A stretch of DNA of 53,979 nucleotides, counting the filler, from Sphacelaria rigidula (taxonomy: Eukaryota), in the NCBI GenBank assembly GCA_964200075.2. It is 3 parts of 3 records of this genome, joined end to end, with 100 filler letters (N's around TTAATTAATTAA, not from the genome) between each part and the next. Parts side by side here need not be neighbours in the genome. Positions count along the whole stretch, not along the records: positions 18,034 to 35,964 come from CAXNAA020000962.1; 2 more parts are not named here. One strand, written 5' to 3'. The notes under the pieces were generated by a model. The model was not told the origin of the DNA. It saw nothing but the letters and a program-made list of their open reading frames with translations, and did no database searches. A program made the position numbers and the translations under genes. Position 1 is the stretch's first letter; each line of letters starts with the position of its first letter. Shown one piece after another: positions 5,401 through 41,009 of this stretch.

Positions 5401-5868
5401 TTCGTCGCCGCAACCAAAGACCCTACGGCAAGCAATCGACATGCTGCTTTTGGAAGCTTGTTCCCTTTCCCAGTTCCCGCTTCTCGTTTCAGATTTTCGA
5501 CGCGTTCGTAACAATCACCCGATGCGGTGGAACATGTAGCGGTTCGATCGTGAATCCGTTTCTTTTTGTTTTTCTGGCTATTGCGAGATCTTTTCATTCA
5601 TCCTCTCTTCTGGATATTTACCACGGGTATGGGCGAGGTATGGGTTAAAAACAGACAGTGCAGTATGACCAAATTAGCGTGCGCCCTACGTAGACTTCCA
5701 TGCAGTACGGGGTGTCGAGTACCGCACATGTAGGGCAGACCGTTGGCACAAGAAATTGCGCTCCGAAACACGCCACCATAGTTCACGGCCAAGCCCAGCG
5801 AAAACAGTTCAGTATACATACTGTACTGTCTGCACTCTACTGTACTGTACCAAGAATACATCATTAAC

Positions 5869-6726
5869 ATGTTAAAGGGGTCTGCTAGTACCGTCAATGC
5901 TGATGATCATCCCGACAGGAATCACACATGGCCAACCACCACCAGCTCCCGCGTAGAAGTCGCGCATTGCTTCGGCACGTGTGCGGGGAACTTGCGAGAG
6001 AATTCTTGCCTACTGGAAGGAGCACGGGTCGCGTACTCGGTGGGTTCGCGTGTAGCAGTCACCGAGGTTGACGGAAATGCCGACGAGCTCACGTTCCTCA
6101 GCACGGGATTCCCTGTGCGCTTGGTGAGTGCGGTGGCGTGCAGCCCGGACAAACGGTTCGTCGCTGTGTGCTACAAGAGATTGCAACGGCCTCGCACCGC
6201 GTACGCCACGGTGTACCATATTCCGACCAAACCACAGCCATCGAGAGTCAAGACTCTGTCCTACGAACGCACCAGGATAAAACGAGGGCAGCCTTCGCAG
6301 CAGGGTGGTCCCATTAACTCAGCAGATGATGGCCTACTTTCTCTTGTATCACTAGCGTCTCGACAAGCAACCATCGGGGATAAAAGCAACAACAGCAACC
6401 GGGATGGCGGCAGCAAGGGTGGTACAAGGGCTCAGAACCTGGCGTGTGCTGGGAAAACCGCGGAGTTTGTGGCCGCCAATTTTTCTCAAGATGGCCACTT
6501 GCTACTCGTGTTGGACGGACAACCAGCATGGACTATACTGTGCTTCGAGTGGAAATCTGGTCGGCGCATGTTTACCCTCCCGGTGGGATCGTCTGTGCAC
6601 AGGATGGTTTTTTCTCCGATTGACGAAAGTAAGATAGCTACGGCCGGAGACAACGGGCACTTCAGGATCTGGGCTATGCAAGGGGGTAAAATGACGCCCA
6701 TGGTAGCCATCGAGAGGAATGGGGAG
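5869..6726 (+). CDS. First coding exon of a CFAP57/WDR65-like WD40 ciliary protein (gene incomplete in window)
   Basis: ATG at 5869, 286 codons, donor GAG|gtacgt at 6727. Motif order HCFG…N…VAYSVG, AVACSPDKRFVAV, RVKTLS, EFVAANFSQDGHLL…GQPAWTILCFEW, FSPIDESKIATAG…FRIW matches my recollection of the CFAP57 N-terminal propeller. Confidence 0.75.
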
Positions 6727-7967
6727 GTACGTGTTACTAGAATTGTGGCGGCGTGGCTTCTCTGTGTACAGTACACAGAACAATCGGTTCAACTCGTGAA
6801 CCCAGCTCTAACAAGAGAGCTCGCAGAGGATGCACACTGTTGGTGAAGCACTTGCTTCGTGCAGTAAAGAAAATAAGGTGGCTTTCACTTGGCGCTTCAC
6901 TTGGCCGAACCTAGAATCAAACACAGTACAGTCACCCTCTACTCTACAAAAAACTGATGACAAGCTGGTGGGCCTGCTTGACGTGGGTAGCTTTGGAGCG
7001 AGACAGCGTAGGGCCATATATCGATCTTTCGATAAAAAATCTTGTATACGTTCTATGAAACGGTTTATCCAAACTGTTGATACCTTAGACTCTACATACC
7101 AACCTCTTCACTGCGCTGACAATAAGCTGACTTTCTGTATACGAGCTATTCAGTACACGAGCGATTCAAATTCTACACTACTCCAGTATGACGATTGTTC
7201 CACCTCTTCGGTTACTACGTGCGTTACTACTATTCACTATTGTACGATATTTCTTACGAACGCTGAACCGTAACCTATTCTTCCGCTAAAGTTGAGTATG
7301 TGTTCGGAAAAGCTATTTCATAATTTCCAACACGTCGTGTGGCATGCAGGCTGATGCTAATCCCACTGCTTGAGGTCAAGAAGGACACTCGGCGATTTTC
7401 GTTCGAGGCTTGCGTGTCGGGACATGAAATTAATATGTGTGACTCGACAATTTGGAGGACATGAGTGGAGGAGTCATCGGGGGGGGGTTGTTGTTTGGGG
7501 AGTCACAGCCGTTGAACGATAAAAGGGGTCAAATTGTCATTTTTTTCAAGTGGGGCAAGAATTTTTCACTACGAAGAAATACGTGCAGACGACATGGTCT
7601 ATGACAATATATCGTTTTGCCGTTCAACTAAATGCATCTTCGTAATAACCCTGTGCGAGCTTGTTCCATGGAACAACGATGACCTTAACTTAGACAATAC
7701 GATAGGGGACAAGGGCGCGGCGGGGGTGATTCTGTAGCATTCCCCCTTCCCCCTCCCTCCCCCTCCCTGCCTCCCCACCCCGCATCCACACCCCCAGACT
7801 CTTGGGTTGGCGTTCAGTGGCAATGGTGGTGTCACACAAGCCACCAGGACCTCCTTCATTTTCCTCATTCTCTCTGTTTATTTCCGTTTTTTCCTTCATT
7901 TGTCTTCCATTCCCCTTTTCCCTTTTACTATTCTCTATACGTTTTTGTTTATAATTTTTTTTTTTTC

Positions 7968-8620
7968 CCGCTACCAGAGCATAGCGGCATGGACATGAAA
8001 TAACGAAGCTAATCATACTTCTCTTTAACCTACCGTAACACAGCCCGGACATACAGTAGACATGAAATAACAAAGCTAACCATTATTTTTCTTTAACATA
8101 CCATAACACAGCCCGGGGACACGAACACGAAATGATGAAGCTAACCCTGCTCTTAATTCAACCGACCATAACACAGCCCGGACATAGACACGGGATAACG
8201 AAGCTAAACACTTTTTTTCTTCGACCTACCGTAACACAGGCCGGATGCAGACATTTTTTTTTCACCTACCATAACACAGCCTGGACGAAGACATGACATG
8301 AAGAAGCTATTTTTTTTCACTTTAACCTACCATAACACAGCCCGGACATAGACATGGAATAACGAAGCTGGGTATCCATTTTCTCCAACCTACCATAACA
8401 CAGCCCGGACACAGACATGAAATGATGAAGCTAACCATCCTTTTTCTTCAACCTACCATAACACAGCCCGGACATGGACATGAAATGACGAAGGTAGCAA
8501 TTCCTCTTTTTTAAACTACCATAACACAGCCCGGACGTAGACATGGGATAACGAAGCTAGCCGTCTTTTAAGCAGTAACCAGAACACAGCCCGGATATTG
8601 ACATGAAATAACGAGAATGA
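7968..8620. repeat. Tandem array, ~11 units of ~63 bp
   Basis: Consensus cctaccataacacagcccggacatagacatgaaataacgaagcta followed by a variable ~15-20 nt pyrimidine-rich segment. Confidence 0.9.
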
Positions 8621-9599
8621 ACAGTTCTATTTCCCCACATCAATACGGAAAACAACCGAGATTCTTCCTCCCGTATCATAACAAGGGTGAGACATAAAAT
8701 AAGACCAAAAGCCAGACATGTAAGTACTAGCGTGCAGGTGGACCACCTTACGTGTAAATCGAGAATACAATATATATAACAAGTAAATACAGGGTAGGGC
8801 CATCACCCCCGACATGTTATGTTCACATGGAGGTGGGATCTTGTGGTGAGATATCCGTAAATCTTTACCGGTTTCCAATAGGCGGTGGAAATCTGGTCAG
8901 ATATTTTCCTGAATTTTTCGACATTTGGTGCACAGGCGTCTGATGAAGGGAAGGGGTGCATAATGCATGGCATGAAGGTCAAGACGTACTGCACTCATGA
9001 AACAAACACTTCACCAATGACCGAACACATGACTTACGAGAAATAATACTAAGCGGTACGTGAACTTCTTGAGATCGTAAAGAACAGAAAGTAGTACAAA
9101 GTGTGAGGGAATCGTTGGCCAAGCTTTTGGCAGCGAAGGTCTACTCGGGATCATTAGTAGAGTCGCGACCCATGGTGAACCGTACACGGAGTGGGAAGAA
9201 GTGATGTACGGGACATCCCGATGTATGAGTAAGACCTTGTGTTATGCAAGCCGTCCTTGAACCTTACACGGTGAAAACGACCTCCCTGAAGGAAAGTAAG
9301 CGGTACAGCAGCGGGGCAAGAAGATGAAAGATACGACCGTGGGACGTCTGGTGCATGGTTTACTGTAGAGCACCTGGCACAAACGTGGGGTACTTGTGTC
9401 AAAGGTATTAGATTTAGCTTTAGGCTACGAGCCTGTGTTGGAGGCATTGTTTAGTGTCGGTGAGCCAGCAAAAGTACTGAAAGGCGGCACCTGTCCCCCA
9501 ACAACTACTGGGATTGGGACATCCCAGTACCTTGACTACATCCCACCAAAATACTTGAAACGAACAAGCTGGAGACGCTCTTGAAAGAAATCGATAGAG

Positions 9600-12500
9600 A
9601 GACGGTAAGGAACGGCACATGGGGAAGTAAAGAGTGGACGGGTAAAGTACTAGTAGTGCTGGTATGCTGAGTCCCTAGCGATATGACGAGATAATAAGTT
9701 AGAAGAAATGCGATGAAGCTGGACTATATTGTTTGGCAAAAGGAAAAATTGAAAGGCAGAGAGAACACTTCCGAGTCATGCTGAATCAGAGCGCGACTAA
9801 GGATTGGGAAAGGATAGAGACACGTAAGGTGTCGGCATGGGTTAGAGGGTAGGATGAAGAGTATGCATTGCTAATGGAACAGCAATCCTAAGACGTAATC
9901 CACGGGTAAACAGAGGAGAAGAGAAGCTGGAGCAAGTGAGTGCCCGGAAGGGGAAGGAGAGGGTATACAGGGGCCCGAAGCAGATAGGAAAAGGCCAAAA
10001 CGGGAACGGGAAGAACAATCAAGCAAGGGAAAATAGAAGTGAAAACGACGAAGAGAGAGAGCAGTAGACAACAGGAGATCAGATAATGATTCGGAAAGGG
10101 AGTTGAGCATAGGATCGTGGAACGTGTGTGGATTCGCCACAGACGGGCGCAAAAGAGTAGAGATAGCCCAACAAGTAAGTGAACGCGACCTAGATATAGT
10201 GGAAATCCAAGAGTCACGGGAAAAAGAGGGGACGGAAATAGGATGCAAAGCAGAGAAGTATGCATGGACAGGGGAAAACGGAAGGGACAGAATACCAAAA
10301 GCAGGGGAGCGGGCGAGTAGGATTCTTAGTCGTGAAATACCTGTGTGGCATCATAGAAGTGATCAACAACACAAAATTTGACGAGAGCATATGGGTAAGG
10401 GTACCAGGAGATCGGGGAACGAAGGAGTTCTTCGAAGGGAACATCTACATGCCCCCAGAATCGAAGAGTAGGGTAAGCGATATACAGCGGAGGTTTGGAG
10501 AGATAGTAGCAAATGTACATAAGTATCAAAGGCAAAGGAGAAGTAATGTTAGTGGGAGATGTTAATGCAAGGACTGGAAAAGCAGGTCAACCGGATGATA
10601 TCATTGGGCAATATGAGGAAGGTCAGAAGAAGACGAATGGGGTAGAAATGCTGAAGTCCCTTGAGAATAACGAGATGAAGACGCTGGACGATGGAGTACT
10701 AAAGCCAGAGGCGCAATAGACATGGACTAGAGACCGCAATGACGAGAGAGAACACTCCGTTCTTGACTATATTGTGGTAGAGCATAGAATTAGTAAGGCG
10801 ATAGAAGTGCATGGCGTGAGAGCTACAAATCATTGCCTAATATGCACAGAAAGCCAACACACGAGAAGTGAAAGAAATAGGCGGGGTGGGAAGTTTTACA
10901 AATGGAGAATCGATAAACTAGAAATAGAAGAAAAACAGGAAGATTTCCAAGAATATATGGTAAAAATGCAGTGAAATTTTAGGAGCTGTTGGAAAGCGTA
11001 GGTACAGTTGATACCGAAATGGGAAGGGATCGAGCAGGGGCGAAGGTTATATAAGGATGTGAGCAGTTGATCAATAACACAGCGAGTAAAGTCATGAGGA
11101 AGAAACTGATCGTATGCAACAGAGCAGTAAAATTGCCGGATGTGGAAGTGGAAGAGGCAATGGGAGTAAGGGGAGAGGCCCACGCAAGATTCATATCGAG
11201 TGAAGCTACGGCAGGATGGGAGGAGTATACTAAATGAAGCTCGAAAAAAGTAGAAACGATTTTAGAGGAGCAAAAGAAGGGAGTATGAGAAGATGTAAAT
11301 GAATAAAAAAATGAAGATTTCGATGGCGGCATGAGACAAACTTGGGTAGGAATAACAGGGGCAATGGGAAACTAGACTGGAAAAATAGACAAGGGGATAG
11401 CCACACTGCGTGCACAGAAGGGTAAAATGGTCGGTAGTTCGGAGGGAGAGAAAGAAGTGCTGGTCGAGCACTACCGGAAACCAGGAACACCAAAAATTCA
11501 CAAGAAGTTCGACATGGCATTCGAAAAAGAAATCAACGCGTGGGCAGAGTAAATGTAGAGGTGTCAAAACGGGAGGATGGAGGCTCGAAAGAGTTGCAGA
11601 GAGAGAATTTAACAGATATGAAGCAAAGGGGTGTGTAGCTAAACCTAAGAACAGAAAAACATCACGGGCAGATGAAATAGTGAAGAGATTTTTCAAGAAC
11701 GGGGGAGAGGGAATGATTACCATGATGGTTATGCTGTACAACTGGGCCTGGAAAAACGAGTACACACACAAGAGGTGGAGAGAAGGAGTAGTCGTCAATC
11801 TTTTTGAAAAAAGCGACAAGGCTGACCCGAGAAACTATGGAGGGATAACGCTACTGAGCACAGTAGGGAAAATATTCTGTAAGATTGTGGACGATAGAGT
11901 AAGAATGATGGTAGAAAGAGAAGAAAAAATCAGCGAGGGGCAAGCAGGATTTAGACTAAACCGTAGTTGTGTAGACCATGTGTACACACTAAGTAAGATT
12001 AATCAGGGTAGGAAAGACACCGGGCTGACAACGTACTGTTTCTTTCTGGACGTGCAAAAGGCTGATGGCATATTATGAAGAAATGAGTTGTGGAAAGCGT
12101 TGTGGGGAACGGGGATCAGAGGATAGATGTGGAGAATGGTGAACAATATTACAGAATGTGTCACAAGTGCTAATGTATGATGCTAGATGGGGAAACGTCG
12201 AAATAACTTGATATTTTCACGAGGAGTTCCACGAGGATGTACATTATTACCCACTCTATTCAAAGTATTTATTGATGACCTGATAAGAGCAATAGCAGCA
12301 GCAGAGCAAGGAGTCAAGGTGGGTGAAGATATGGTATCAGGATTGAAGTTCGCAGATGATTTCGTGGGGATATCAGGAACACCAGAAAAAGTGCAGAAGC
12401 AAATAGAGAAGCGCTGCATACACTAGGAATGGAGAGTGACAGCGGACGTTAACAAATGCGCGGTACTTGTCTGTAACGAAGATGAGAAAAATCCGGTAGA

Positions 12501-13688
12501 GTTCAAATGGAAGTGGAGAGAAGAGGAACTGGCGACCGTAGACCAGTATACATACTTTGGCGTAGCGAGCCAGAACAGCTGTTCTTACGATGAACATATA
12601 AACAAAGTAATAGAATAAGGTAAGGCACACATAAGCAGGATGGGCGTGATCCCCAGAGACTCGCACCTAGACACTAGGATTAAGAGATCTATCCTGATGA
12701 ACGTGATCGTACCAAAGCTGGAATATGCAGGAGAAGTATGGGAGGGGAACGTGAAATTCACGATGAAATTGGAAACAGTACAGATGGTAGCAGCCAAGAA
12801 AATATTTGGATGCTCGAAAACGATGAGTAATACAGCATTGAGAACAGGGTTGGGAATGCACGCACTTGAAACAGAGACAGGAGGAAATTGAAACGGCAAT
12901 TTCGCGTAAAGAACATGCAGAAAAAGGGATTGCCAGCTATGGTTGACAGGGCGGTATGGAAGAAAAGTACGAAAGGGGAGGCTCTGATAAGGTGGAATAA
13001 AGAAGTCGAGAAAGTATGAAAGGAGATAGGAGGAAACCAAGGCGAAATAATATCCATATATGAAGGCGGGGGTACAAGACAAAAGTAAGGGGTATGATAG
13101 AAATAAGGGGGAAATGAGCGCTTAAACGCAAAGTAGATGAGGAAAAACACCTGGAGATATACGGGGGGTTGAGAGAGGGGATCGGGATGAAAACGTATTC
13201 GCATCGTCCCATGGACGCTGCGAAAAAAGTGAAACTGCGACGTCGGGTGGGGGACCTGGACCTGCCAGAAAGAGGAAAGAGATATACCAGTCGTCGAACG
13301 GAGGAGGAAGCAGATGCGCAGAACTGCCCCTGTGGCAAAGTAATAAATAGCAGAAGTCATATAGTGGTAGAGTGTGAGCTACACAAGGAGGAACGAGACG
13401 TGCTAGAGGGGGAAATGCGAGACGTGAACCAGCGTGGCATGAAATCGTTTGATGCATTGGACAGCAGGGAGAAAACGATGGCTATATACTAGGAGATAGA
13501 TGGTGGCCACAGAAGGCGAAACAGGACGGGCATAAGATATGTAAGAGGTTTTTGTGAAATGTATGGAAGAAACGTGATGAGCGCCGGAATATTGAAGGTG
13601 GCTCCATCAGGAGTAGGAATGGTGCTCCGTCTCGAAAGGGGTGCGTGGTCAATGGTCAACCGACTAAGGCAAGCACCAGATGAGTACG
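9600..13688 (+). mobile_element. Decayed non-LTR retrotransposon (LINE): APE endonuclease, RT and C-terminal Cys/His motif, intact 3' end
   Basis: APE motifs (WNVCGF, DIVEIQES, LVGDVNAR), RT motifs (YGGITLLSTVGKIF, EGQAGFR, FLDVQKA, GVPRGCTLLPTLF, FADD) and CPCG…SRSHIVVEC. Many stops and frameshifts. The 5' boundary is where similarity to the second copy starts; 9000-9600 may also belong to it. Confidence 0.92.
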
Positions 13689-13789
13689 CCCCCCTGATAG
13701 CACCAGTATGTGTGTATGTTCTGGGGTTATAGGCTAGAAGTCTAATATTGCGCTACGAAGGCAAGAAGCATCCCAACCGTGCACACATG

Positions 13790-16692
13790 GGCCGATACTC
13801 TTTCGTTACATACGAGTACCGCGCATTTGTTGACATTCGCTGTTACTCTCCATGTCCTAGTGTATTCTAGCGCCTCGTCTATTTATTTTTGCAAGCTTTC
13901 TGCTGTTCTTGAAATCCCCACAAAATCATCTGCGAACATGAAACCTGATATCACATCTTCACCCACCTTGACTCCCTGATTTGCTGCTTCCGTAGCTAAT
14001 ATCAGGTTATTAATGAATACCTTGAACAAAGTGGGCGATGCCGTACGTCCTTGTGCAACTCTTTGTAAAACATCAAAATGTTCCGACATTTCCCCGTCTA
14101 GCATCATGGCACTTTTGGCACATTCTGTCATCTTCTTCACCATTCTCCACATATTTCCCCTGATCCCAGCTTCCCACAAGTTTTCCCACAGTCCGTTTCT
14201 CCATACTGTGTCATGAGCCTTTTGCACGTCCAGCAAGGAACAGTACGTTGTCAGCCCGGCGTCTTTCCTGCCTTGATTAATCTTGCCTAGTGTGTACACA
14301 TGGTCTACGCATCTACGGTTTGGTCTAAAACCTGCTTGTCCCTCGCTGATTTTTTCGTCCTTTTCAAGCATTGTTCCTACTCTATCGTTCATAATCTTAC
14401 AGAACATTTTCCCTACCGTGCTCAGTAGCGTTGTCCCTCCATACTTTCCTGGGTCAGCCTTGTCTCAATTTTAGAAAAGGTTGACGACTACTCCTGCTCT
14501 CCACCTCTTGGGTGTGTACTCGTTTTCTCACATCCAATTCTACCGCATAACCATCACGGTGATCATTCCTTCTCCCCCGTACTCGAGAAATCCATTCACT
14601 ATTCCGTCTGCCCCTGCTGCATTTCTGTTCTTGAGTTTAGCTACGCACTCCTTTACTTCATCCATGGTAAATTCTTTCTGCAATTCTGTCGAGCCACTAT
14701 CCTATCGTTTCGACGTCTCTACATGTGCTTCTGCCCATTCGTTAATCTCGTTTTTGAATTCCGTGTCGACCTTCGCGTTAGTTTCTGGTGTTCCTAGTTT
14801 TCGGTAGTGCTCGACCAGCACTTATGTCTTCCCCTTCGAACTACTGTCCATTTTACCGTTCTGTGCCCGTAGTGTGGCTACCCCGTTGTCTACCTTCCTT
14901 GTCTGGTTTCCCATGATCCCTTTTATTCCTAAGCACATTTGTCTCGTCCCGCCATCGAAATCTTCAATTGTTTTATTCACTACACCTTCCCATACTTCCT
15001 TTTTTTTCTTCTGTACCATATTTTTTACTTCCTTTCGAGCTGAAGTATACCCCCCCCATCCTACCGTACTTTTGCTCGACACCCATCTCCCGTGGGCCTC
15101 TCCCCGTACTCTTGTACTATAGCCGCTTTCACTTCCTCATCCCATCATCACTGCTCTGTTGCATACGATCAGTTTTTTATTCATGACCCTTCGCTGTGTT
15201 CTTGACCAGCTGCTCCCATCCTTCTTCAAATGTCGCTCCTGCCCGATTTCTTTCCATTCCGGTATCAACTGTACCTACGCGTCCCAACAGTTCGGAAAAT
15301 TCCACTGCATTTTTAGCCATCTCTTCTTGGAACCCTTGCCTTTTTTCATCCATATCTACTTTATCGATTCTCTATTTGTACAGCTTCCTACCCCGCCTAT
15401 TTCTTTTAGCTCTCGTCTATTGGCTTTCTGCTCATATTAGGCAGTGATCTGTGGTCCCCACGTCCTCCGCGCATATTGGCACTTCCATTTCTTTACTGTT
15501 CCCATGCTCCACCACTATATAGTCAAGGACGGAGAGTTCTCTCTTTTTCCCTTTGCATTCCCTCGTCCATGTCCGTTGCGCCTCTGGCTTTTGTGCTCTA
15601 TGGTTCAGCGTCTTCATTTCGTTATGCTCAAGGAACTCGAGCATTTCTACCCCATTCGCGTTCTTCTTATCTTACTCGTATTGCCTAATGGTATCATCCG
15701 GTTGACCTGTTCTTCCTACCCTTGCATTAAAATCTCCCATTGACATTACTTCTCCTTGCCTTTTATACCTATGTACATCTGCTGCTATCTCTCCAAACCA
15801 ACGCTTTATATCGTCCACCCTACTCTTCGAATCTGGGGGCATATAGATGTCCCCTACGAAGAAATCCTCCTTTCCCAGTTCTCCTGGTACCCTTAGCCAA
15901 ATGCTCTCGTCGAATTCCGTGTCATCGATGACTTCGATAATGTTACACAGGTTTTCCTTGACTAAGAATCCTACTCCCCCGCTCCCCTGCTCTGGGGCTT
16001 CTGTCCCTTCCGCTTTTTTCCTATCCATGCGTACTCTTCAACATTGCATCCTATTTCTACTCCCTCTTTTCCTCATGACTGTTGGACTCCTTCTACATCT
16101 AGGTCGTATTTACTCACTTGTTGCGCTATTTCTCCTCGTTTGCGCTTGTCTGTGGCGAATCCACACACGTTCCACGTTCCTATTCTCAACTTCCTTTCCG
16201 AATCATTATCTGCTCTCTTGTTGTCTCCTATCCTCTTTCCGTGTCTCTTACTTCTACTTTCGCTTGCTTGATTGTTCTGCCCCTTGCCGGTTTGGTCTTT
16301 GTCTAGTTGCTTCGGGCCGCTATGTCTCCTCTCCTTCCCCTTCCGGGCACGTACCTGTTCCTGCCTCTCTTTCCCTCCGTTTGCACGTGCACTACGCCTT
16401 AGGTTTGTTATCCCGTTAGCAATGCATACTCTCCATCCTACCCTTCTGACCCATGCCGATATCGCACTTATTTCTATCCTTTCCCACTACTTGCTCGCGC
16501 TCTGTTTTAGTGTGACTCGGAAGTGTTCTCCTTCCCTTTCTACTTTTCCCCTTGCCAAACAGTATAATCCAACTTCATCGCATTTCTTTTTGAACTCTAT
16601 TCTCGTCATGTCGCTACGTACTCCGAATACTAGCACTACCAGTACCTTACCCGACCACTCTTTACTCCTCCATCCGCCCTTCCTTACCGTCT
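13790..16692 (-). mobile_element. Second decayed LINE of the same family, 3'-truncated after the RT core
   Basis: Minus ORFs with GDFNAR, SVLDYIVVE, TTDHCLI, EGQAGFR, LDVQKAHDTVWR and FMFADD. Colinear with ~9600-12490. Confidence 0.92.
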
Positions 16693-17027: not shown

Positions 17028-17740
17028 TCATGAAGAAACACTATAGTCCGAGGCTAATTTACTCGCCAGCGCCCGAGTCAACAGCATTTTACGCAGTTCC
17101 TTCAAAACAAATTCAGGCGTAGAAGGATGAATCTTGCGAAGAGACTCCCACGTGCTTTCTTCAGCACCGAACCCCTCCCAATCAACCAAGACAATGACAT
17201 TACCATTGTCATCCTCAGCGACGTGCACCAAAGCACTCATCCGACAGTCACCTTGAGCATACGAATGCTGAAATACGTATTTAAGTTCCGCAGTGATGTG
17301 CAACTGCGAGTCAGCATAGAAACGCAAACGAGCGACATGGGTCGAGTGCACGGGGCCAAAAAAAATATTGTGCACCGAATACACGTGAGCGTGATCGGCT
17401 CCGACCCCTCGTCGCGGACCTGTCGACGTGGAGATCAACTTTGGCGTCAAACCTTGCCTACCAACACGGGCATACAATGCGAAATCGCCAACTGCAAACT
17501 TGGGCAACACAGCCTGGCCCTGAGCAAGCTTGCGTTTGGTTTCGCGAGACACCGCCACAGCAACTCGCACTTCGTTACAAAACCGCACTTGCTCGCCAAC
17601 CACGCCTCGAACCTTGCCACTAAACGAATCAGCATCCATGACATCGACGTTCCACTCGCCGCCAGTGACAGAAGCCAGCGCGGAAAACGCTGTACGTGGC
17701 ATACGCCCAAACATCACACAATACGAAGTGTTACGGCAGC
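17028..17740 (-). mobile_element. Ty3/gypsy LTR retrotransposon pol 3' fragment (integrase C-terminus plus chromodomain)
   Basis: MFGRMPRT, FAVGDFALYARV, PKL…TGP, HVARLRFYAD, then chromodomain-like VLVDWEGFGAEESTWESL before the stop at 17028. 16700-16950 may be LTR remnant. Confidence 0.85.
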
Positions 17741-17834
17741 GTTGACGAAAAGAAGTATTAACCCTTTTGGACCCCATTGACGATTTTTGTTTGTGTAAAT
17801 CGGCATCATTATCAGTCATTTTCGAGGAAAATGA

Positions 17835-17933
17835 TGCCGATTCACGACACTTTCTTCGATAGCCCCCACCCCAAAACCAGCTCAAAGTGTCACGGAAAAA
17901 ATGGCCAAACAGCGCCTGATGTTCGGGTTCAGG
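17835..17933 (-). repeat. Dispersed repeat, also at 25580-25680 (+) and ~25450-25500 (-)
   Basis: Shared cctgaacc…aacatcagg…ggccattttt…gctggttttgggg…ggctatcg.aa…gtgtcgtga. Confidence 0.7.
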
Positions 17934-18033
17934 NNNNNNNNNNNNNNNNNNNNNNNNNNNNNNNNNNNNNNNNNNNNTTAATTAATTAANNNNNNNNNNN
18001 NNNNNNNNNNNNNNNNNNNNNNNNNNNNNNNNN
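17934..18033. other. Artificial scaffold linker
   Basis: 44 N + TTAATTAATTAA (stop in six frames) + 44 N. Confidence 0.97.
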
Positions 18034-22844: not shown

Positions 22845-23359
22845 GTGAGCAAGGATGATGCCGCTTATTACGAGAGCTGATACCACTGCTCCCAGGCCCG
22901 ATGACGAAATCTCTAGCCTTGATGTTCCCAAAGATACCGACGTTGGTGACGCCGAAACTATGCCGTTCGGAAGATACTGTATATGGTCGAGATCCATGTG
23001 TTCAGCTCTTTTGTCAAGTAGTGCAAGGTGCTTCATCTTCGAAAACTCGAAGGTGAGAGGATCTATTTCGTGTACTGTACACATCGAGTATCACACGATG
23101 TTGATTGCAAGGTTCAACGATGTGCTTATGACGTCACCGCATATATCTAGTACTCGTAAGCAGTGCTTCAATACATTATTCGCAAGGTGTGAGACTGAAA
23201 CTGGCCCGTGCATACTGACGAAAGGAGATCATGACCAGGTGATCCATGATGACAATTTGATGTGAAAAGACGAAGACTAGAAGGAGAAAAATCACGATGG
23301 TCCCACGATTAAAGAGACCTACATACCACATGCGCACGTATGGGTCTTTCAACCATAGA

Positions 23360-23722
23360 TGTGTGTGTGTGTTGTCATCCCATCTATTCTGGACGCCAGT
23401 CTACACCTTTCGGTATATGTGGGCGCACTCACTGGGGTCACATGGGAGGAAGGCCTACACAGGAGCTTCACTTCTTTTTATTTTCAGTACTCCACCTTCC
23501 TTCTGCGGTACTTGCCTTATTTTTTTCGTCGCGAGAGGGGCTCAGCAGTCCCTTCCCTCGTCGACCGTGAAGTCGAATCTGGCGTACCCACGACATGGTC
23601 GCTCTCCACTGTTGGGCGTTGTGTGAGAAGAACTCCCAGATCGTGTGACTCAACCGAGATTCGAACCCACGACCCAACCGTCAGAAGTTTTCAAGGTCAC
23701 CAACTGAGCCACCGATACGACC
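23360..23722 (-). mobile_element. tRNA-derived SINE, full length (~360 bp)
   Basis: Minus strand: A box TGGCTCAGTTGG (~23700-23711), B box GGTTCGAATC (~23658-23667), (CA)n tail at 23360-23372. Confidence 0.88.
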
Positions 23723-24280
23723 GGCGATGCTAGGACTCCAAATTGCCATCGTTTTTACAAAGTAGGGGAAGAGGCGTTGTCACCAGCGCCTCGCGTGGAC
23801 AAGGAAAAATACACTGTTCTACGTGCTGTCTGAGACAACATTTTTCATCATCCTTGCGTCCGACGGAACAGATATTTATAGCCTTATGTAAGGTTGTTCC
23901 AGCGAACAACCATGACCGTATCTCAGTAAAACGATGGAGGTCAAGGGCGCGGCGGGGATGGTGCTATAATTCCCCCCCCCCACACCTCTGTCGTTGAGCG
24001 ACTCGTACGCTCACTTGTGCATCTACCTTCGTGCTACAGACCGAACAGAGGAATCATCCTATGATGGGGGGGGGGGGGGGGGGTATTTTGGGCTGCTTCT
24101 TGCACGAAATTCTAAGGTAAATCGTCGTTAAAAGCAACAACGGTTGTTCGAACGAGCTCATTCGTACTGCTTGGCGTCATTTTTTGCCAAACACAAGCGA
24201 ACCGCGAGTGTGGCAGATCGTCTGACACACCTATGAGCCTCTTCTTTCGTGCAATCAAATACCAGCCCCCCCCCCTATCG

Positions 24281-24328
24281 GTCGAGGTCAATGGTCTCAT
24301 GGCTATAGCATACATGATCATGAGTACA
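24281..24328 (+). mobile_element. 48-nt 5'-truncated LINE-family insertion with 14-bp target-site duplication
   Basis: ggtcaatggtc…tgagtaca resembles the LINE 3' end. Flanked by C10-TATCG (24266-24280) and C9-TATCG (24329-24342). Confidence 0.75.
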
Positions 24329-27300
24329 CCCCCCCCCTATCGTAGGACGACTCAGAAGTCGTACTAAACTACCGCAAAAAGTACCGCTGCTGTGCTCGCA
24401 CACACATCAGTTGCGTTCTGCTTTTGCCACTTGGTTTTTTGTGCCGGCTGACTTGGTACTATACTGTATGTGGTACATACGATATACACATGTGGATGTG
24501 TCAAGTAGCGTAGGGCTACAATGCGAAAAATCGGCGATTATTGAGCAGCGATCATGCTCCACAACCTCCATCGCGGTGAAATGTTTTTTACAGGTATCAC
24601 CCCGGCGATCGCATACCTCGTCGAGAGCAGATAAAGATATACGAGCGAGTACACGAAGCCGCGACCGCCAAAAAAGCCCAACTTGTCGGTGAGAATCATG
24701 GCAGGATTCATAACCTCCCCGCGATTTTTAGAGTGTTCCGTGTGTGGCAGGCTCTGAATTACCTCGGGCGTTCGTTCTAGTCGTGTGTTTACCACATGCA
24801 TTCCTACATACATATTGAATGTTGACGTTTGATATACTATAACGATAACCAGGGCGTCGCTGACGTATCAAAGACACGTCCTACCTATTGGCCGCGCGCT
24901 TGCTCCCTCATGCGGTTTTTCGGGTCACCGGTGTGGTGTTTGTTTTATACGTATACGTCTTATGGCTCTGCCCCTGCACAAAGCAATCGAAAAAATCATT
25001 ATTTCGGGTGATTGCTACATACTCAAGTATGCGCTCGTCTCTCTCGGACATCTTAGAGTAGAATCGTAGACCACGTATGTAACGATGGTATGATTCATTC
25101 TTCACGTCTCATCACTGTGAGATTATCAAATTTCATCGGACACTACACCATTCTCTTCGTGGCAGTAGACAAGACCCCTAGAAGGAGATGATTACCACAC
25201 GAGTCTGTTTGGGGACACACCACCGTTTTCACAGTGGTGTCGCCGGTACGACCGTCCACCACACGAATAAAAGGTCATGAATTTGACCCTGGCCTTGGTA
25301 ATCGCAAAAATAAAATACTCTCACGAAGGTCGAGCCGGGCGCAAAAATCATGGGAGGAGTATGATATCGTTGGAAAACCTTAGCAGATGAGATCGTTATG
25401 CGAGCTTGTCCCAGTGTCGTAGATGAACGTGTATATGGAGCACAAGTGAGACACTTTTTACGATAGCCCTCCCCCCCAAAAGTGCATGGTTTTGGGAGGC
25501 AAAATCTTNNNNNNNNNNTGGGAATTCCCACCGTTGGGCTCGTTCTCGCCAATGTTGCCAATATGAGGCGCTTCATGCAGCCTGAACCTAAACATCAGGC
25601 ACTGTATGGCCATTTTTTTCGTGAGACTTTCGGGCTGGTTTTGGGGGGGGGGGCTATCGTAAAAGGTGTCGTGAGCGTGAGTCGGGTGACATGGCCCCTA
25701 CACGCACACCTACAGAAAATGAGTAGATGTGGAGCTATAGGGAGTGAACCCTGCATTGGGTGCCACGCGACTGATGGGAGCTCAAGGAGACAAAACATTT
25801 GAACAAACACTACCGATTTTATGGACACATCTCAGGTTCGTCGATTTCATCGTGCTTCTTGTTTCAAATAACAAAGCCGCTCAAATCGAAACGCATTCCG
25901 CACAGCGTTGAAAAGTAACAAGGTGATGTAGAGGCGCACTGTAGATACCTCGGTTCTCGCGCTTTCATTGCCACTGATGGGAGTTGATGCGTCCCAACAA
26001 GCCGAGGCAAAGACTGAATGGTGTGTCTGTGGCTCTGCGAGGTTACGCGGCGTACCGGGACATGTACGTACCCTGGCGAACACTTGAGACTCTGATGACA
26101 GTCCCAAAATATCCGAATGTGCCAGTCCATGCTGAAAGGGAGTATGTTTCAACCATATGTTCTGGCAACTGACTCGCGAGACCTCTAGTGCGGATCTGGA
26201 CGCTTCCTTCCCCTAGCATCCCCATAGGTGTGGTTGTTATTCGCCAAAGTAGTGGTGTCTTTTCTTAACCAAACGCCAAGAAATGTGTGGTTCTATACTG
26301 ACGGTACGACCTGTCTCGGTAATGCGCTATGAAGTCCGCCATCGTGATAAGTTGGGCTCGAGGCCCGCCGCCGCGTTTTCAGCAGTAGGACATATGTAGA
26401 AGAGGGATCCATGGACCACAATTTCTTGTCTCCCCTCTCATCCCTGTGGACGGGAACCTGCAGCTTTTACCCTTCAGTTACCGAAAACATACAGTAACGC
26501 ACTTGACCCTCGCAGTATCTTAATCGACCATTGGTGTGTTTCTTCTGTATCTTTGCTACCGTAGTACGCTCTTTGCTTTCGGTTGTCGGATATTATTATG
26601 TGGCACAGCATCCTGGTGCAGTAAGCCGCAAGGAGGGGAATAGGTGGGTTTACGTAAACCCTTCGCCACAGACCCTACGGCTTCGCATAACGTCCACTGC
26701 TGCTGCAGCCGCAGAATATGTATACAGCAGTAGATACCTCCTGTCGAAGTTGCTCATAGGAAACTACTTACGTGAATCTCGCCCACGAGTTATCTATTAT
26801 TCTAGTCAAAGGTAAGTGAGCGATCGAAGCGTTGCATACCCATCAGTCCATGACTCTACGGTCGATACGTTGCGGTACAGAAAGTACTGCTTGCGCTGAG
26901 CGGTGCCAATCACGGAAAACGGTTTGTGCGAGCGAAAAAGACGTCATCGTGCGAGGTTGCCCACGTGCACGTTTTTCCGTGAAACAGGGGAAACGAGCAT
27001 CAATCTCAATCGTGTGCTCATATAAATGGACTAGAACGTTGCCCGGCACTGCTAGCGCACAGCACGCGAGATGCATCTACTGCGTGTAGCTTGGAAACCG
27101 ATTTGCGATCATGATGTTCGCCGTTTGTGTCTCTCGATCTGAAGCTTCTCACATGCGCTGTTTCCCCCACCCCCGTGGTTGGAAAGGCACATGTTTTGTC
27201 GCGGCACATAGTACAGGGCGATACAGTGCAGAACAGACAGCAGCAGTAGTGTTGCAGGTTCGACGTGACACATTCAGTTATGATTGTACAACTGTACCGT

Positions 27301-27984
27301 ACGGTACAAAGTACATCGATATCGCACGCTCTCGCAACGCGTCGCGCAACCCAAAACGGAGTTCACCGCCTCCTCTCTTGCTTACAAAATTTTCCCCCAC
27401 ACGCTGCAAAGTTACCAATGGTGAGCAATGGCCTCAATAGGCACGTCGCTAATAAGGGTTGACGAGCTTGCAGCATCAAATACAAACAAGATATTGTCGA
27501 CCGTCCGATCGTTCGTGCTGCCGTCACACACATATACGCACCTTCGTACTCCTATCCCGATGGGATTGACGACGGTTGGCAACGACGACGTAAAATCCGC
27601 CACTCACTGTGTGAGTTAGGCAACCAGGGTACCGTTTATTTTTTGCCCTTGCGTTTTTTGCGGTAACCATGATTGTGGTCGAGCTAGATCATATTGTGCG
27701 GGGTAGGACAACCTCAATTCCGCGCAAAGGGGATGATAATACTACGTAGTGTGTCAATGGTGAGGCGCCCATGAGGTAGTGTGTAACTCACAGTCGTCTC
27801 TGGAAGTGGTGATACCAGAAAATGAGGCAACTCATTTGGAGGCTGTCATACGTATGCAAAATAATCATTACGCTTCGGGCCGAACGATCTTGGCAGGATG
27901 CAGCTCACCCTGCATGTGACTCGCCGAATACATCACGGCGCTTTGCGCTTGGTGATTTATTGCGGGCCTGGTCCGGCGAAAACC

Positions 27985-28064
27985 CGGCGTGCTCCGTCTC
28001 GGCTTCGTAGGGGGATGCAAGGTCAATGGTCATATGACTACGACATGCAAAATCATGAATACAT
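27985..28064 (+). mobile_element. Diverged LINE 3'-end fragment followed by C6
   Basis: gtgctccgtctcg…ggtcaatggtcatatgacta…tgaataca parallels 13622-13688. Confidence 0.7.
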
Positions 28065-30216
28065 CCCCCCAAGCGCAACGCAAAACCCAGGGAGCTCGCC
28101 CCCCCGGAGCTCCTGACTTCCTCGTCACGGATTGAAAGGTTACACTACTCAATTGTTATGACAGTTGATACCCTCCGAAGAGGTGAGTGTATGGGAGTAA
28201 AAACAGGGTGCTTACCCCTTGTCCACGTGGCATGTACAAATGTACATGTTTGCCTCTCGTCACACCGTGATGTCTGAGGAAACTATCCAAGTAATTTATG
28301 CGCGGTACGTACACGGCACATGCGCGACACTTTCTTACACCCATCAGGCATAGATGAGTCCACGATCATGGCGCTTCGAGATCTGATTGATCAAAATGTT
28401 TTCATGCCGTCGAACAAAGCCAACGTCTATTCATACGTCCTCACGTACACACAAGAATTTTCTCAAGCGATTCCCAACACCCTGACACCCGGTGTCTAGA
28501 TCCAGGTAACTTCAGTGCACCTCCGTGCCACTCTAGTGCGAAGACTGACGACATACAGTAGAGGTTGCAGCCCGTGTGCACGAAGATTTGGCATTGGAAA
28601 CGAGAACGAAATGGAACATTCTCACCGCCTGCCGACGGAGAGGGTGACAACTGTCGCCAAAACAGCTAGTAGGTTCACAAGGGAGGGGTGATATGGAGAA
28701 AGCTACACCTACTGAAATACAGGACAACTCCTACAAGAGGCTGTAGCAAACAAAATGCCTTACTCACAATATATAACGTTTTGGGGCATTCGCAATCTCT
28801 GCAAGAATGAATGTGAGATGTTTGACCAACACTAGAGCCTTCTCTCGAAAAATGGTATTTTGTGTTCGCAGCGTTCGTGTCACATTTCGTTTGCAGTAAT
28901 CAGTAAACCCCCAGTACAAGCGACGAATCTCCCACATGAGCAGAATGTCTCCCACACGAGCATTTTCTGGTTCTATGGCGTGGCCTCTCCCGATATGTTG
29001 ATCGACTGCGAAAGATAAAACGCCACGTTTTTGTTCTTGTTTTCTTGTTTTCAGCACAATCAGGCACTGTTTTCGGTACGTTGACCGCCACTATGCCACC
29101 GAGCACAGCACATGGCCGCTGCGCGTCGAACCACGTCCAGCGGGGGTTCGACGGTCTGACACGTCGTATCCCAAGCCAATAGTTCATAGCTTGTACGTTG
29201 GAGATGTTTTTAGTCTGTCGGTCGACGCATTTATGGGGCCCATATCTATTCCTTTTTCACACTTGAGTAAAAACAAATACGCACGGGCCGAACTGTGGAG
29301 CAGTGGTATCCCTCACGTCGCCTTCGGTCAGATCTCCCTCTCATGACCACGCCCCGTGCACGTAGCGGGTTTAGTCAAGGGATCCCCTCATAGCGGCCGT
29401 TGGAGTGCAATTGTAGTATGTTGATGAGACGCTCGAGGGCTTTGTTTACCCGTTCCCCCCTGTGTTTCGCACCTCTCCGCGCTTGTGCCTGCCAGTTTCC
29501 CTGGGTATCGACGTGCTGCTGTTCGAATAACCCAACATTGGCAAGATGTTTCCTTCTCGCACGCGGTGCAAGCTGCCGATGTGACGGTATACAATTGTTG
29601 GATACCTTTCGTGTGCGTCAAGTTGTGCTTGCGTCTGTAGAAGGCGGGAAGAATGCGTTTCACGAGACACCACCCCCTCAGCCTTTAAACCCGTTGTCCA
29701 AGCTCACACTCAGCATCAGCAGCACTCCCATCGCCTCCGCGGCCAATACGCCATGCTACAAGCAGCCGGGCGATTTCCAGAGCAATACTGTGTCACTGAG
29801 CACACCTAAAATACTGAAACCATTTCCGCGGTCGGACACTCTGTGCCGACCAACTCCTTGCTCAACGCGCGTGTACAAAGTTCAATCAAATTGGTGTTTT
29901 CAACGAGCCATCTCCCCGCCTGCCCACCCCATTGTGATCACAACGGCAGATGTTGCCGTTGAGATATAACGGCGTAGAGAATTCAGTTGTGTACCGGTCG
30001 CTTGCGCTCATACTAAGTGGGACAGATTTTCTCCCCAGGTATTGAAAAAAATACACGGCCCTTTCTCCACCGCTGCTACGCTGAGGAAACTCAACCCCCT
30101 GACAACAGAAAGCGCGGGCGTGCTTCTGAAACTCTCTACTATTGTGGTGTGTGAAAACTCTCTATGATTTCATCTTTTCGTGTATTTTACCGCCCAATTG
30201 GTGCTCACCACCGCAG

Positions 30217-30611: not shown

Positions 30612-30682
30612 AGCAGTGCTCCGTCTTGAAAGGGATGCGCGGACAATGGACAAAAGACTAAGGCAAGCAAGAAATGAGCACG
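30612..30682 (+). mobile_element. LINE 3'-terminal fragment
   Basis: gtgctccgtcttgaaaggg…gactaaggcaagcaagaaatgagcacg matches 13622-13688. Confidence 0.8.
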
Positions 30683-31972
30683 ATTTCAGTCATATTCGTG
30701 TACTTCCCACATTTCCCCCTTTAGACGTCCCGTTCCTCCTTGTACCGTTCACATTCTGCCACCGTATGGGTTCTACTCTTTATTACTTTGCCACAGGATC
30801 AGTTCTGCGCATGTTTTTCCTCCTCCGCTCGGCTCGTGGTGTGCCCCCTCCTTTCTCTTTCTGGCAGGTTTGCACCCCCTACCGGAAATCGCACTTCCAT
30901 TTTATTCGCGTAATCCAATTGGCCGTGCAGACATGTTTCCACCTTATCCCCTCTGTCAACTCCCTGACTATTTCCAAATGCTCTCCCTCGTTCCACTTTC
31001 CCCTTAGCGCTATTTTCTCTCTTTTATATATATATTTTCGTTTGTTTCTGTCTTGTACCTTCCACATTCCCCTCTCGACATTGTCTCGTCTTGGTTTCCT
31101 CCTATATCCTTCCATGCTTTCTTGACTACCCTACCCCATCTTATTCCAACCTGCCCTTTCGTCGTTTTTTTCGTTACATCCCTATCAGCAATGGCTGGCA
31201 ATCTCTTCCTTGGCATGTTCCTTACGTTATATTGCCACTTCAATTACATGACATCTATTTGTTCCAAGTGAATATATTCCTAATTATGCTCTCTATATGG
31301 TGCTACTCGTCGTTTTTGAGCGTCGCAGTATTCCTTAACTGTTGTCATCTGTACTGTTTCCAGCTTCTTCACCATCTTCGCGTTACCTTCTCATGCTTCT
31401 CCAGCATATTCTAGCTTCGGTACAACCACATTCAACAGAATACATCTCTTGATCCTGGTATCGAGGTTCGAGTCTCCTAGGGTCACGTTCATCTTACCTA
31501 TATGTGCCTTAAGCTCTCCTGTTACTTTACTTATGTGTGCATCCCAAGAAGCACCATTTGAGATATCTACGCCAACGTATGTATACTGATCTACGATCGG
31601 CAATTCCTCTTCTCCCCACTTCCATTTGAACCCTATTCCGCTTCTCCTTATCTTCGTTACATTCACCTATCGCGCATTTTGTTTAGGTTTGCTGCCACTC
31701 TCCATTTCCTAGTGTATTCTAACGCCTCCCCCACTTGTTTTTGCAACCCTTCTGGTGTTTCTGGTACCCCGACGAGATCATCAGCGAACATCAATCCCGA
31801 TACCGTATCTTCCGCAGCCATGACCCCCTGCTTTGCCGCCTCTATTGTTATTGTGATGTCATTATCACACACCTTGAATAGAGTGGGTGATGACGATATT
31901 ATTGTGTGCAACTCCTTGGGAAACAACGATATATTTTGATATTTCTATCATACTACTTCTCGCACAATCTGA
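30683..31972 (-). mobile_element. LINE fragment (RT C-terminal half), intronic and antisense
   Basis: SGLMFADD, LDTRIKRCILLNVVVPKLEYAGE. Colinear with ~12150-13447. Confidence 0.9.
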
Positions 31973-38416: not shown

Positions 38417-39045
38417 CCCTTGAACAGCGAGCGACGCTTGGGAACTGTTCTACTGTTTCACAGGCTCGCAGTCCGGAGACATTCGGGGGTTTCCAGTGGC
38501 CAGGGGGTGTGGTTTGTAGGGGGGGGGGGTCTGTCCGCAAAAGAGCCGAAAAGCTCCGCAAGTCAACCATGTGCGTTTGGAAGTTTCCCGCGGAAAATTA
38601 TGAGGCGTGCACCAGGCACGACAGGCGCGGGGTGCCCATTCTGACCAATCACGCTCGTCAAAATGAGCACGTTCTTCCGGTTCGGGTGGACTACTTTGGA
38701 CTCATTCGCTGTCTACTCCCACGACTCATTTTGGTCATGGGAAATCAACCATAGAGTACATGGGTACAAATGACTTGTTTTGTATTCTGCTCGTGGTTCC
38801 CGCCGCCTGCCTGATCCCTCATGTGCTGCCAGCATATCTTCATACTGTCTGTAGTTTTGTTGAGCGCTAGGCAGAGGCATCAGCACTATCCAGTAGATTG
38901 TGTCCAGTGAAGAGCGATGGCACACATTTTCTGTCTCTTGCCGTTGTATCCAATGAAGACATGCAGCACACATACATACCGACTTTTCACGTCAGTGCCT
39001 GCAGGGTCAAAACTGGTCGAGGGGTTCTCCGGGACTATTTTCCAT
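38417..39045 (+). mobile_element. Non-autonomous element (family B) with piggyBac-like terminus
   Basis: Starts cccttgaacagcgag. Homologous to 45602-46170 (+) and 48630-49672 (-). Confidence 0.75.
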
Positions 39046-39242: not shown

Positions 39243-40621
39243 AAAAAATCATGTGTGCACCCGGGTGCACCATCTGCACCCTCGGATAATGGCAACACAC
39301 GTGCGGCTGACCTGTGTCGCATGACCACCCCGACTGCGGTGACTTGGATCACACTTGCAATCGGAGCCTGCACAACCAACGCAGAATACAGTCGGCAGTA
39401 CAACAGTAACATGATGTCGTACTCTCTCTCATCTCTCACTACCCGTCGCGTGGTCGAGTCTGCATGACTTCCCACTGCCAGCTCGAACATGAAAAAACAT
39501 TATGTTGACTCATTCAAAGCTCAAAGTTTTATACTCGCTTACTTCCCATTCATGTATGATACACACCGACAAAGTATGAACGGAAAAGAGACGCCGCTTC
39601 GTGTACCCCGAGTGGCGCAGAAAACCCAAGGTAGAGAGAGTGGCGTGTACCGAAACAGGCAACATCATGGCAACTATATTATGTGCTTATAGTGGTTAGT
39701 TGTAATGAGTCTATCGGTACCGCGATCTATGTGCACCGTACCGTCCCCGCAGCATCCGCCCGCTGTTTGAAAGAACATGGAGAGCGTGTCACCCCAACGG
39801 TGGGTCATCTCTTTCGTCGGCATAACTTTCACTAAAAAAATTCCTACCCTGGCGGTCAAGGGGTCATAATTGAAAGCTGACTGCAGAAAGGGGTCACGCT
39901 ACCCGGGCGGTTGGTGGATGTGATCCTTCAGTGATGTGATCCTTCAGTGATGCATGCCCATGAATGAACGGAGGAACACAGTGAGAGGGAAAGAGAAAAG
40001 GAAGGCACTGCACTGTACTCTCTGTACAGCGTTGTACAATCCTCTGTGTTTTGGCTGGGCTTTCGTGTACCTACACTGACAATGTACCCTCCTGTCTGTA
40101 GGCCATCACTTCTTTTGCTGTTGAGAGGGTGTGGTGCACATAGATCGCGGTACCGATAGACTCAACACAATCAACAACCAGAAGCACATACTATAGTCGC
40201 CATGATGTTGCCTGTTTCGGTACACACCACTCTCTACCTTGGGTTTTCTGCGCCTCTCTGGGTACACGAAGCGGCGGCTCTTTTCTCTTCACTTTGCCGG
40301 TGTGTATCATACATGGATGGGAAGTAAGCGAGTATAAAACTTTTGAGCTTCGAAATAGCCAGAATTTTGTTTCATGTTCGAGCTGGCAGTGGGAAGTCAT
40401 GTAGACTCGACCACGCGACCGGTAGTGAGAGATGAGAGAGAGTACGACATCATGTTACTGTTGTACTACCGACTGTATTCTGGGTTGGTTGTGCTGGCTC
40501 CGATTGCAAGTGTGATCTAAGTCACCACAGTCGGGGTGGTCATGCGACACAGACCAGCCGCACGTGTGTTGCCATTATCCGAGGGTGCAGATGGTGCATC
40601 CGGGTGCACACATAATTTTTC
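39243..40621. mobile_element. Large foldback element: ~490-bp inverted arms around a ~395-bp spacer
   Basis: 39243-39738 is the reverse complement of 40133-40621 at high identity. Confidence 0.92.
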
Positions 40622-41009
40622 AAAATTATGTAGCTAGAAAAGCGCAGTTTTGAACCCTAAATGTAACATAGTACAACTCAGTCCACCTGCGGGGGGGGGG
40701 GGGGGGTCGCTGTCTGAACCCCAATTGGGCTACACTATGTACATGGTTGATATCACTTGATTTGAGTGTTGAAAAAACGAGAGTAAGATCTTGAGTGGGG
40801 CTAACAGTCCCGTGTGCTCCTCGCGTGCGCAGAACACGTGTTCGTTAAAATCGGCGCCACAGGCGCCGATTTGGGGTCTACCAAGGCCGCACTTTGCCTA
40901 GGGAACACGACGCACCTCCCTTGCTCGAGGGTTGGGGTTGGGGTTGGGGGTAGCGAAAGTTATAAAATGCGTCAACCATGCACACATAGTAGCCCAACGT
41001 CGGTTACCC

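Follow-up and report, generated by a model that had tools for sequence, protein, structure and literature searches.

A brown-algal non-LTR retrotransposon of RTE-X type and its non-autonomous partner very probably integrate by target-primed reverse transcription (TPRT) at G:C tracts. We analyzed 53,979 nt of DNA from Sphacelaria rigidula (GenBank assembly GCA_964200075.2; parts of three records joined by filler), here referred to as the window, which contains copies of the LINE (family A) and of its partner (family B) (Table 1). The effect is real, strong and genome-wide. The family is already catalogued with a (C)n trait in Ectocarpus (Dinatale et al. 2025, PMC12477816, supplementary table), and what is added here is evidence that the C-run serves as both target and tail, together with a related lineage that ends in (TAT)n.

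Table 1. Features of the window relevant to family A, family B and the insertion site in the host MITE
Feature	Position	Strand	Remark
C-rich tract upstream of full-length LINE	7742..7795	+	
Full-length decayed LINE, family A, ~5.89 kb	7798..13688	+	5' end accurate to a few bases
Tandem repeat, 63-nt unit, in LINE 5' untranslated region	7988..8610	+	Present also in L167, L168, L169
Single endonuclease-RT reading frame, interrupted by frameshifts and stops	9605..13683	+	tblastn with P0001
APE domain; RT domain	~10110-10840; ~11820-12570	+	Coordinates computed from tblastn and Pfam on P0001
Terminal ~65-nt module common to LINE and partner	13622..13688	+	Also codes for the protein C-terminus
C6 directly after LINE 3' end	13689..13694	+	
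Second LINE copy, without 3' part	13802..16687	-	
Family A 3' end, then C11	18034..18098	+	54 nt visible past the gap
Host MITE	24051..24353	.	Ends placed by eye
Left TSD copy, C10-TATCG	24266..24280	+	Within right terminal inverted repeat of host MITE
Family B copy (RTEX-N1-like, non-autonomous), 48 nt, 5'-truncated	24281..24328	+	
Right TSD copy, C9-TATCG	24329..24342	+	Tail C's and target C's indistinguishable here
Full-length family B partner, ~500 nt, then T-C6	27562..28070	+	Element itself 27562-28063
Family A 3' end, fifth in the window (84% identical), without C-run	30616..30682	+	
Inverted LINE fragment joined tail to tail with the fifth 3' end	30680-31891	-	

The LINE and its non-autonomous partner

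The initial annotation had proposed an APE-type LINE, and the autonomous element indeed combines an APE endonuclease with an RT. Positions 9605-13680 of the window align by tblastn, through several frameshifts, to residues 1-1360 of P0001, an intact relative (1,360 aa; 78% identity across the RT piece used as query) with Pfam domains PF03372, PF14529 and PF00078; catalytic motifs are present in both the APE and the RT domains of intact relatives. The head of the LINE recurs at two other loci, both with C-rich DNA just upstream. Its stop codon lies 5 nt upstream of the 3' end, with no poly(A), and the terminal DNA module therefore also encodes the C-terminus of the protein. A stable hairpin at this module was not significant in four copies (z-scores −1.65, −0.93, 0.39 and 0.48). 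The best other genomic RT matches have ~72% protein identity, and family A looks decayed in this genome, with old copies, because the open frames of all 150 scored RT matches reach at most 517 aa and many contain stops. Twin priming was considered for 30616-31891 and rejected, as the two pieces meet tail to tail (judged by eye).

Family B is non-coding (longest stop-free frame 66 aa); in 17 copies, the distance between the head motif and the end is 471-513 nt. It has its last 61-62 nt in common with the LINE at 72-76% identity, and its head is weakly similar to that of the LINE, with a mean local score of 20.9 for 17 B heads against a mean of 11.6 and a maximum of 17.2 in 300 shuffled controls. 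Copies occur in tandem: of the 126 A and B copies kept, 23 were nested, each starting directly after an A or B end, and run contigs contain head-to-tail joints. The head of family B gave no Rfam match to E = 5 (window 27300-28150), and no tRNA was found in any of five loci. A SINE derived from a tRNA, 5S or snRNA was rejected on the grounds that no small-RNA head was found, a search that a decayed head could escape.

C-runs in place of poly(A) at 3' ends

Four element ends in the window lead into C-runs, with C6 after 13688, C11 after 18087, C9 after 24328 and C6 after 28064. These lengths agree with the initial annotation, which had attributed all four ends to the LINE; the LINE in fact accounts for just 13688 and 18087, and family B for 24328 and 28064. 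A fifth end in the window, at 30682, is an exception to the rule that LINE ends adjoin C-runs, and both this end and one in L006 have no C whatever. The rule itself was upheld by the genome-wide survey of 3' junctions that the initial annotation had suggested. The terminal 19-mer of the LINE has 4,282 exact genomic occurrences, of which 3,198 are followed by N-CCCC, against a chance level of 0.5% of window positions at which CCCC begins. The remaining 1,084 ends lack N-CCCC; in the fetched sample, many such ends have interrupted tracts. The corresponding 20-mer of family B has 785 exact genomic occurrences.

Loci were fetched with queries free of the downstream C-run. Among them, a C-run of at least 4 was present within 15 nt of 78/85 A ends and 71/84 B ends, and an A-run followed only one end in each set (1/85 and 1/84). 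Together with the 6/96 A-runs before 5' junctions, these counts rule out an L1-type poly(A) LINE. Close relatives in other assemblies had this terminal motif followed by a C-run in all five cases where the 3' end was covered (L162-L165 and L170).

C-runs and duplications at 5' junctions

The 5' junctions were called with our own heuristic of reference-anchored extension; all-against-all calling was discarded because it extended through chance C-run matches between copies. From 170 ends, 44 were dropped (19 unusable owing to locus edge, N or excessive length, and 25 with the junction inside the element), and from the 126 copies kept, the 23 nested and 7 full-length B copies were set aside, which left 96 independent truncated copies. 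In 69/96 of these, the 20 nt immediately upstream of the 5' junction contained a C-run of at least 4, compared with 5/96 at 60-80 nt upstream and 2/96 for G-runs (Fisher p = 3e-23), and the copies stand in a single orientation relative to the tract. The median distance from tract end to junction was 5 nt. Flanks beyond the C-tract were variable among copies, and the base preceding it showed no preference (A 34, T 29, G 11 vs. a background of A 130, T 140, G 60). A strictly sequence-specific APE element is excluded by these variable outer flanks and by the 27/96 junctions that had no C-run of at least 4.

Target-site duplications were called as the initial annotation had advised. Strict locus-specific duplications were found in 19/96 copies, whereas 30 permutations yielded 2.6 on average and never more than 5. 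No strict duplication was called in the other 77/96, which may be expectable for old copies with unstable tracts. The earlier proposal that the C-run is part of the original target and starts the duplication is supported by the 69/96 5' junctions and by the intact MITE ends described below (33/36). It had, however, treated a targeted C-run and an encoded tail as alternatives, and both hold. In 57 copies the 3' side had more C's than the 5' side, in 32 it had fewer and in 7 the two counts matched (p = 0.002); of 20 copies with a weak 5' tract, 15 nevertheless had at least 6 C's on the 3' side. Because the 3' tract is more often the longer one and C tails persist at weak targets, the C-run is also a tail, to which the element adds C's of its own.

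The insertion at 24281-24328 and its host MITE

The flanks of the 48-nt insert, C10-TATCG and C9-TATCG, are as first reported. The insert had been read as a truncated LINE copy; its median alignment scores, 35.5/44 with 84 B ends and 26/44 with 86 A ends, identify it as a truncated copy of family B. It lies in a MITE that carries a G/C run in both terminal inverted repeats, G18 at 24066-24083 and C10 at 24266-24275. The G18, which the initial annotation named among potential targets (~24066), belongs to the opposite terminal repeat of this insert-bearing MITE. Contigs from three DNA runs, one of which is possibly the window's own source, were identical to the window from 24318 onward. Among the joints listed for four runs against window 23000-28600, which may likewise include that source, no contig skipped the 48-nt insert.

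As a paralogous empty-site test, we examined 57 ends from 29 other MITE copies, retrieved by the MITE interior alone. Of these, 36 were uninterrupted, and 33/36 had a C-run of at least 4 before the same motif; the C-run at 24266 is therefore target, since the terminal repeat of the MITE carries it without any element. Eight of the 57 ends held an A or B insert, in the same orientation and directly after the C-run, a count that leaves out L090, a ninth match, as ambiguous; 12 ends were unclassifiable. A rough expectation under random insertion, assuming up to 25,000 ends, is fewer than 0.3 of 57. One of the eight inserts, L091, is similar to that of the window and may not be independent. In L163, a close relative from another assembly, the C-run is likewise followed by this MITE-like motif. 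A point against targeting is that long G/C runs abound and most have no insertion on the upstream side (8/8 of those checked).

Relationship to RTE-X elements of Ectocarpus and to other targeted elements

The initial annotation knew of no described poly(C)-targeting LINE. This no longer stands, as such traits are noted for the RTEX-1, RTEX-2 and RTEX-N1 families of Ectocarpus sp. 7, in table notes only (PMC12477816). The supplementary table lists RTEX-1_Ec32 with 'single EN-RT ORF; (C)n 3'' and RTEX-2_Ec32 with '(C)n termini/TSD'; both have a single EN-RT ORF and lengths of 5,511-5,867 bp, and the TSDs of RTEX-1, RTEX-2 and RTEX-N1 are given as 'C-rich'. RTEX-N1_Ec32 is described there as non-autonomous, 604-607 bp long, with a 60-bp 3' end in common with the LINE (83% identity), weak 5' homology to the LINE head, tandem copies and a head of unknown origin. 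Fig. 1C of the same paper depicts terminal motifs. In its main text the terms 'C-rich' and 'homopolymer' are absent, and the part of its account of these families covered here contains no discussion of targeting. Our search of the open-access literature, with Repbase reports and subscription journals outside its scope, found no paper analyzing LINE C-tract targeting.

The window LINE resembles RTEX-1 and RTEX-2 in its single APE-RT ORF, (C)n 3' end, C-rich TSD and length of ~5.89 kb. The RT tree groups the window copies into a 10-row clade (support 100/99) with the Ectocarpus-named proteins P0006 and P0089, and the P0003 cluster also includes Ectocarpus-named members; these proteins are titled 'unnamed protein product' rather than RTEX. 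Ectocarpus-named RT matches are 54-66% identical where most of the query is covered. By its anatomy and RT relatives, with the published consensus compared through its description, the LINE appears to belong to the Ectocarpus RTEX-1/RTEX-2 system. It differs in residing in another genome (244 Mb) and in that the scored copies here are decayed, whereas many intact RTE-X copies are reported in Ec32 (PMC12477816). The RTE-X label is taken from the same table, our RT tree being free of clade-labelled references, and RTEX has been placed beside RTE (PMC5753468, PMC11203168). Comparison with solved structures returned matches to L1 and R2 RTs only, which are too distant for clade placement. Family B in turn resembles RTEX-N1 in its ~60-nt common 3' end, weak 5' homology, tandem occurrence, C-rich TSD and head of unknown origin. 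It is shorter, at ~500 nt compared with 604-607, and its common end less similar to that of the LINE (72-76% vs. 83%); the published length may include more C-rich flank.

Several other systems use simple repeats as targets. Many families of Chlamys, Penelope-like elements, target (CA)n and (C)n repeats (PMC8557442), but with a GIY-YIG endonuclease and within another retroelement class, in contrast to the APE endonuclease of the window element. The APE-type LINEs Waldo, Mino, Kibi, Koshi and Dong insert in simple repeats, and their listed targets, ACAY, AC, TC, TTC and TAA, include no C homopolymer (PMC3812793); compared with such microsatellite-targeting elements, the preference seen here is loose (27/96 without a C-run). 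In RTE-clade LINEs and their SINEs, the microsatellite at the 3' end and the initial base of the TSD are correlated, and a template-dependent choice of primer has been proposed (PMC6007223). This tail-target logic is alike, but their TSDs start with T downstream of a T stretch, and the abstract mentions no C homopolymer (PMC6007223). As in mammalian L1 and Alu, where a homopolymer tail pairs with the complementary nicked strand, the TSD starts with the homopolymer (PMC3812793). The difference is that C/G takes the place of A/T and poly(A) is absent (A-run at 1/85).

Proposed mechanism and alternative explanations

By the geometry of TPRT, a sense-strand C-run that opens the duplication implies that a G-rich 3' end of the opposite strand served as primer, so that priming would be on the G strand. 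The element RNA would most likely end in oligo(C). A nick in the G strand would expose a 3' G-run able to pair with this oligo(C) and prime reverse transcription, and a cut of the second strand a few bases past the tract would produce duplications beginning with C's. Every insertion would leave C-tracts at both ends for later copies to use, giving rise to nested head-to-tail arrays. The partner would be carried through its common terminal ~65 nt, in a putative trans-mobilization. As to what chiefly determines the target, our guess is tail-primer pairing, aided by an endonuclease that accepts G-rich DNA.

The most serious competitor, which has TPRT in common with this explanation and corresponds to the version in the initial annotation, makes the endonuclease alone the dominant determinant, reading and nicking poly(dG) strands, with the oligo(C) tail a by-product of read-through. 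We consider this quite possible, although we lean against it. The L1 endonuclease reads T-tracts. The strict strand bias at 5' junctions (C-runs 69/96, G-runs 2/96) and the MITE hot spot would be expected of such an enzyme, and endonuclease cleavage is the presumed driver when other APE elements target microsatellites (PMC3812793). However, pairing alone would also give the strand bias, no base is favored before the tract, and C tails are found even at weak targets (15/20).

Two further alternatives dispense with targeting. If the C-run were merely an encoded tail, 5' C-runs could have come from tandem copying or from template jumps onto earlier tails, as the 23/126 nested copies and the on average longer 3' tract might suggest; but nested copies were excluded ahead of the 69/96 count, the C-run of the MITE exists without an element in 33/36 intact ends, and locus-specific duplications number 19 against a permuted maximum of 5. 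This explanation is largely refuted and we regard it as very improbable. Slightly less credible still is passive accumulation, whereby copies insert without bias and persist, or come to notice, mostly in C-rich repeat DNA. The copies are old and G/C homopolymers are frequent in the repeats of this genome, yet the C-run is confined to within 20 nt of the junction and is gone at 60-80 nt (69 vs. 5 of 96), and the signal is on one strand only, a stranded base-level pattern that regional selection would not be expected to give. An artefact of assembly or sequencing at homopolymers and contig ends can be practically dismissed: many matches to the LINE end sit near contig ends and homopolymer lengths are generally unreliable, but five other assemblies, contigs from other runs and the Ectocarpus annotation (PMC12477816) all show the same ends.

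With the family already catalogued in Ectocarpus, the discovery value is modest. To our knowledge, nearly all well-studied homopolymer-primed retrotransposition involves A/T. An abundant C/G version, with at least 4,282 and 785 exact ends, indicates that the tail-primer rule is one of complementarity, not of adenine. A C-targeting family may also help explain the G/C tracts, nested arrays and contig breaks of such genomes.

A related lineage with (TAT)n ends

The 3' module (~45-60 nt) is conserved as DNA among relatives with ~50% RT identity. Distant relatives, which form a separate RT clade (support 97/97) whose branching relative to the window clade is not resolved by the tree, retain its terminal 45-60 nt with a different continuation: TATT came next at 13/15 of their 3' ends and a C-run at 0/15. 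We offer this related lineage, with the same 3' module but a (TAT)n end, as a new lead, because a single assembly, in which the flanks are A+T-rich, supplied all 15 ends. The megabase contigs that carry these relatives belong to one LINE-rich bin, titled as a bacterial MAG, and are probably host DNA. Relatives of P0029 were not found in viral contigs.

The two kinds of end raise the speculative and, in our view, rather unlikely prospect of a LINE lineage in which the RNA tail itself dictates where the element inserts, with tail and target switched together, (TAT)n vs. (C)n, while one 3' module is kept. The RNA, with its 3' UTR of 5 nt and without poly(A), would derive its tail from the tract surrounding the element. 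Oligo(C) targeting would then be self-sustaining and would seed new G:C homopolymers, and redirection would be possible by a swap of tail with the endonuclease unchanged. The (C)n and (TAT)n lineages, with one 3' module, form a natural pair for the question of endonuclease vs. RNA-DNA pairing. In two of the (TAT)n copies, L174 and L180, a duplication beginning with ATT could be read by eye.

Length distribution of truncated copies

Among the copies of family A (the decayed endonuclease-RT LINE) at L001-L160, 19 of the 49 truncated ones were 60-69 nt long, a length that corresponds to the module common to this family and its non-coding partner, family B, and several of these carried clean duplications. 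Family-B copy lengths grouped near 95-100 nt and 290-305 nt. This clustering of lengths in both families suggests reverse transcriptase stall points or short sub-families. At the 5' junction of one copy (L106), two telomere-like (TTAGGG) units lay between the target duplication and the truncated copy.

C-tracts and surrounding repeats

No family-A or family-B end was seen upstream of the four long G/C runs listed in the table. Their flanks were found again elsewhere in the window, and several repeat families therefore seem to supply C-tracts. The abundant MITE that hosts the 48-nt family-B insert has terminal inverted repeats that begin with GAG and contain a G/C run, both in the window and at L072-L100. 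A 4-bp duplication is suggested at several of these copies by inspection of their flanks by eye. The MITE was not matched to any family in the portion of the Ectocarpus table (PMC12477816) that was compared.

Repeats and coding fragments in the window
Feature	Position	Strand	Remarks
Host WD40/beta-propeller protein exon	5782-6846		weak PF23409 match
63-nt tandem repeat, LINE 5' untranslated region	7988-8610		recurs in L167-L169
LTR-retrotransposon integrase/chromodomain-like fragment	17058-17933	minus (ORF 17028-17981)	identity judged by eye
Long G/C runs	23972-23981, 25643-25653, 38519-38529, 40691-40706		
MITE	24051-24353		further copies at L072-L100
67-nt 3' end and inverted LINE fragment, tail to tail	30616-31891		without C-run
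Inverted repeats (long) and ~100-nt repeats (in clusters)	39244-40620, 51982-52597		typical of DNA transposons or MITEs

The WD40/beta-propeller exon sits just upstream of the full-length LINE, and the integrase/chromodomain-like fragment separates the second LINE from the gap. The tail-to-tail joint has a 3-nt overlap.

Relatives with (TAT)n ends

L172-L191 represent contigs that are rich in LINEs and as long as 2.8 Mb; they were deposited under a bacterial MAG title and are probably eukaryotic host DNA. Their LINEs, the more distant relatives, have (TAT)n at their 3' ends.
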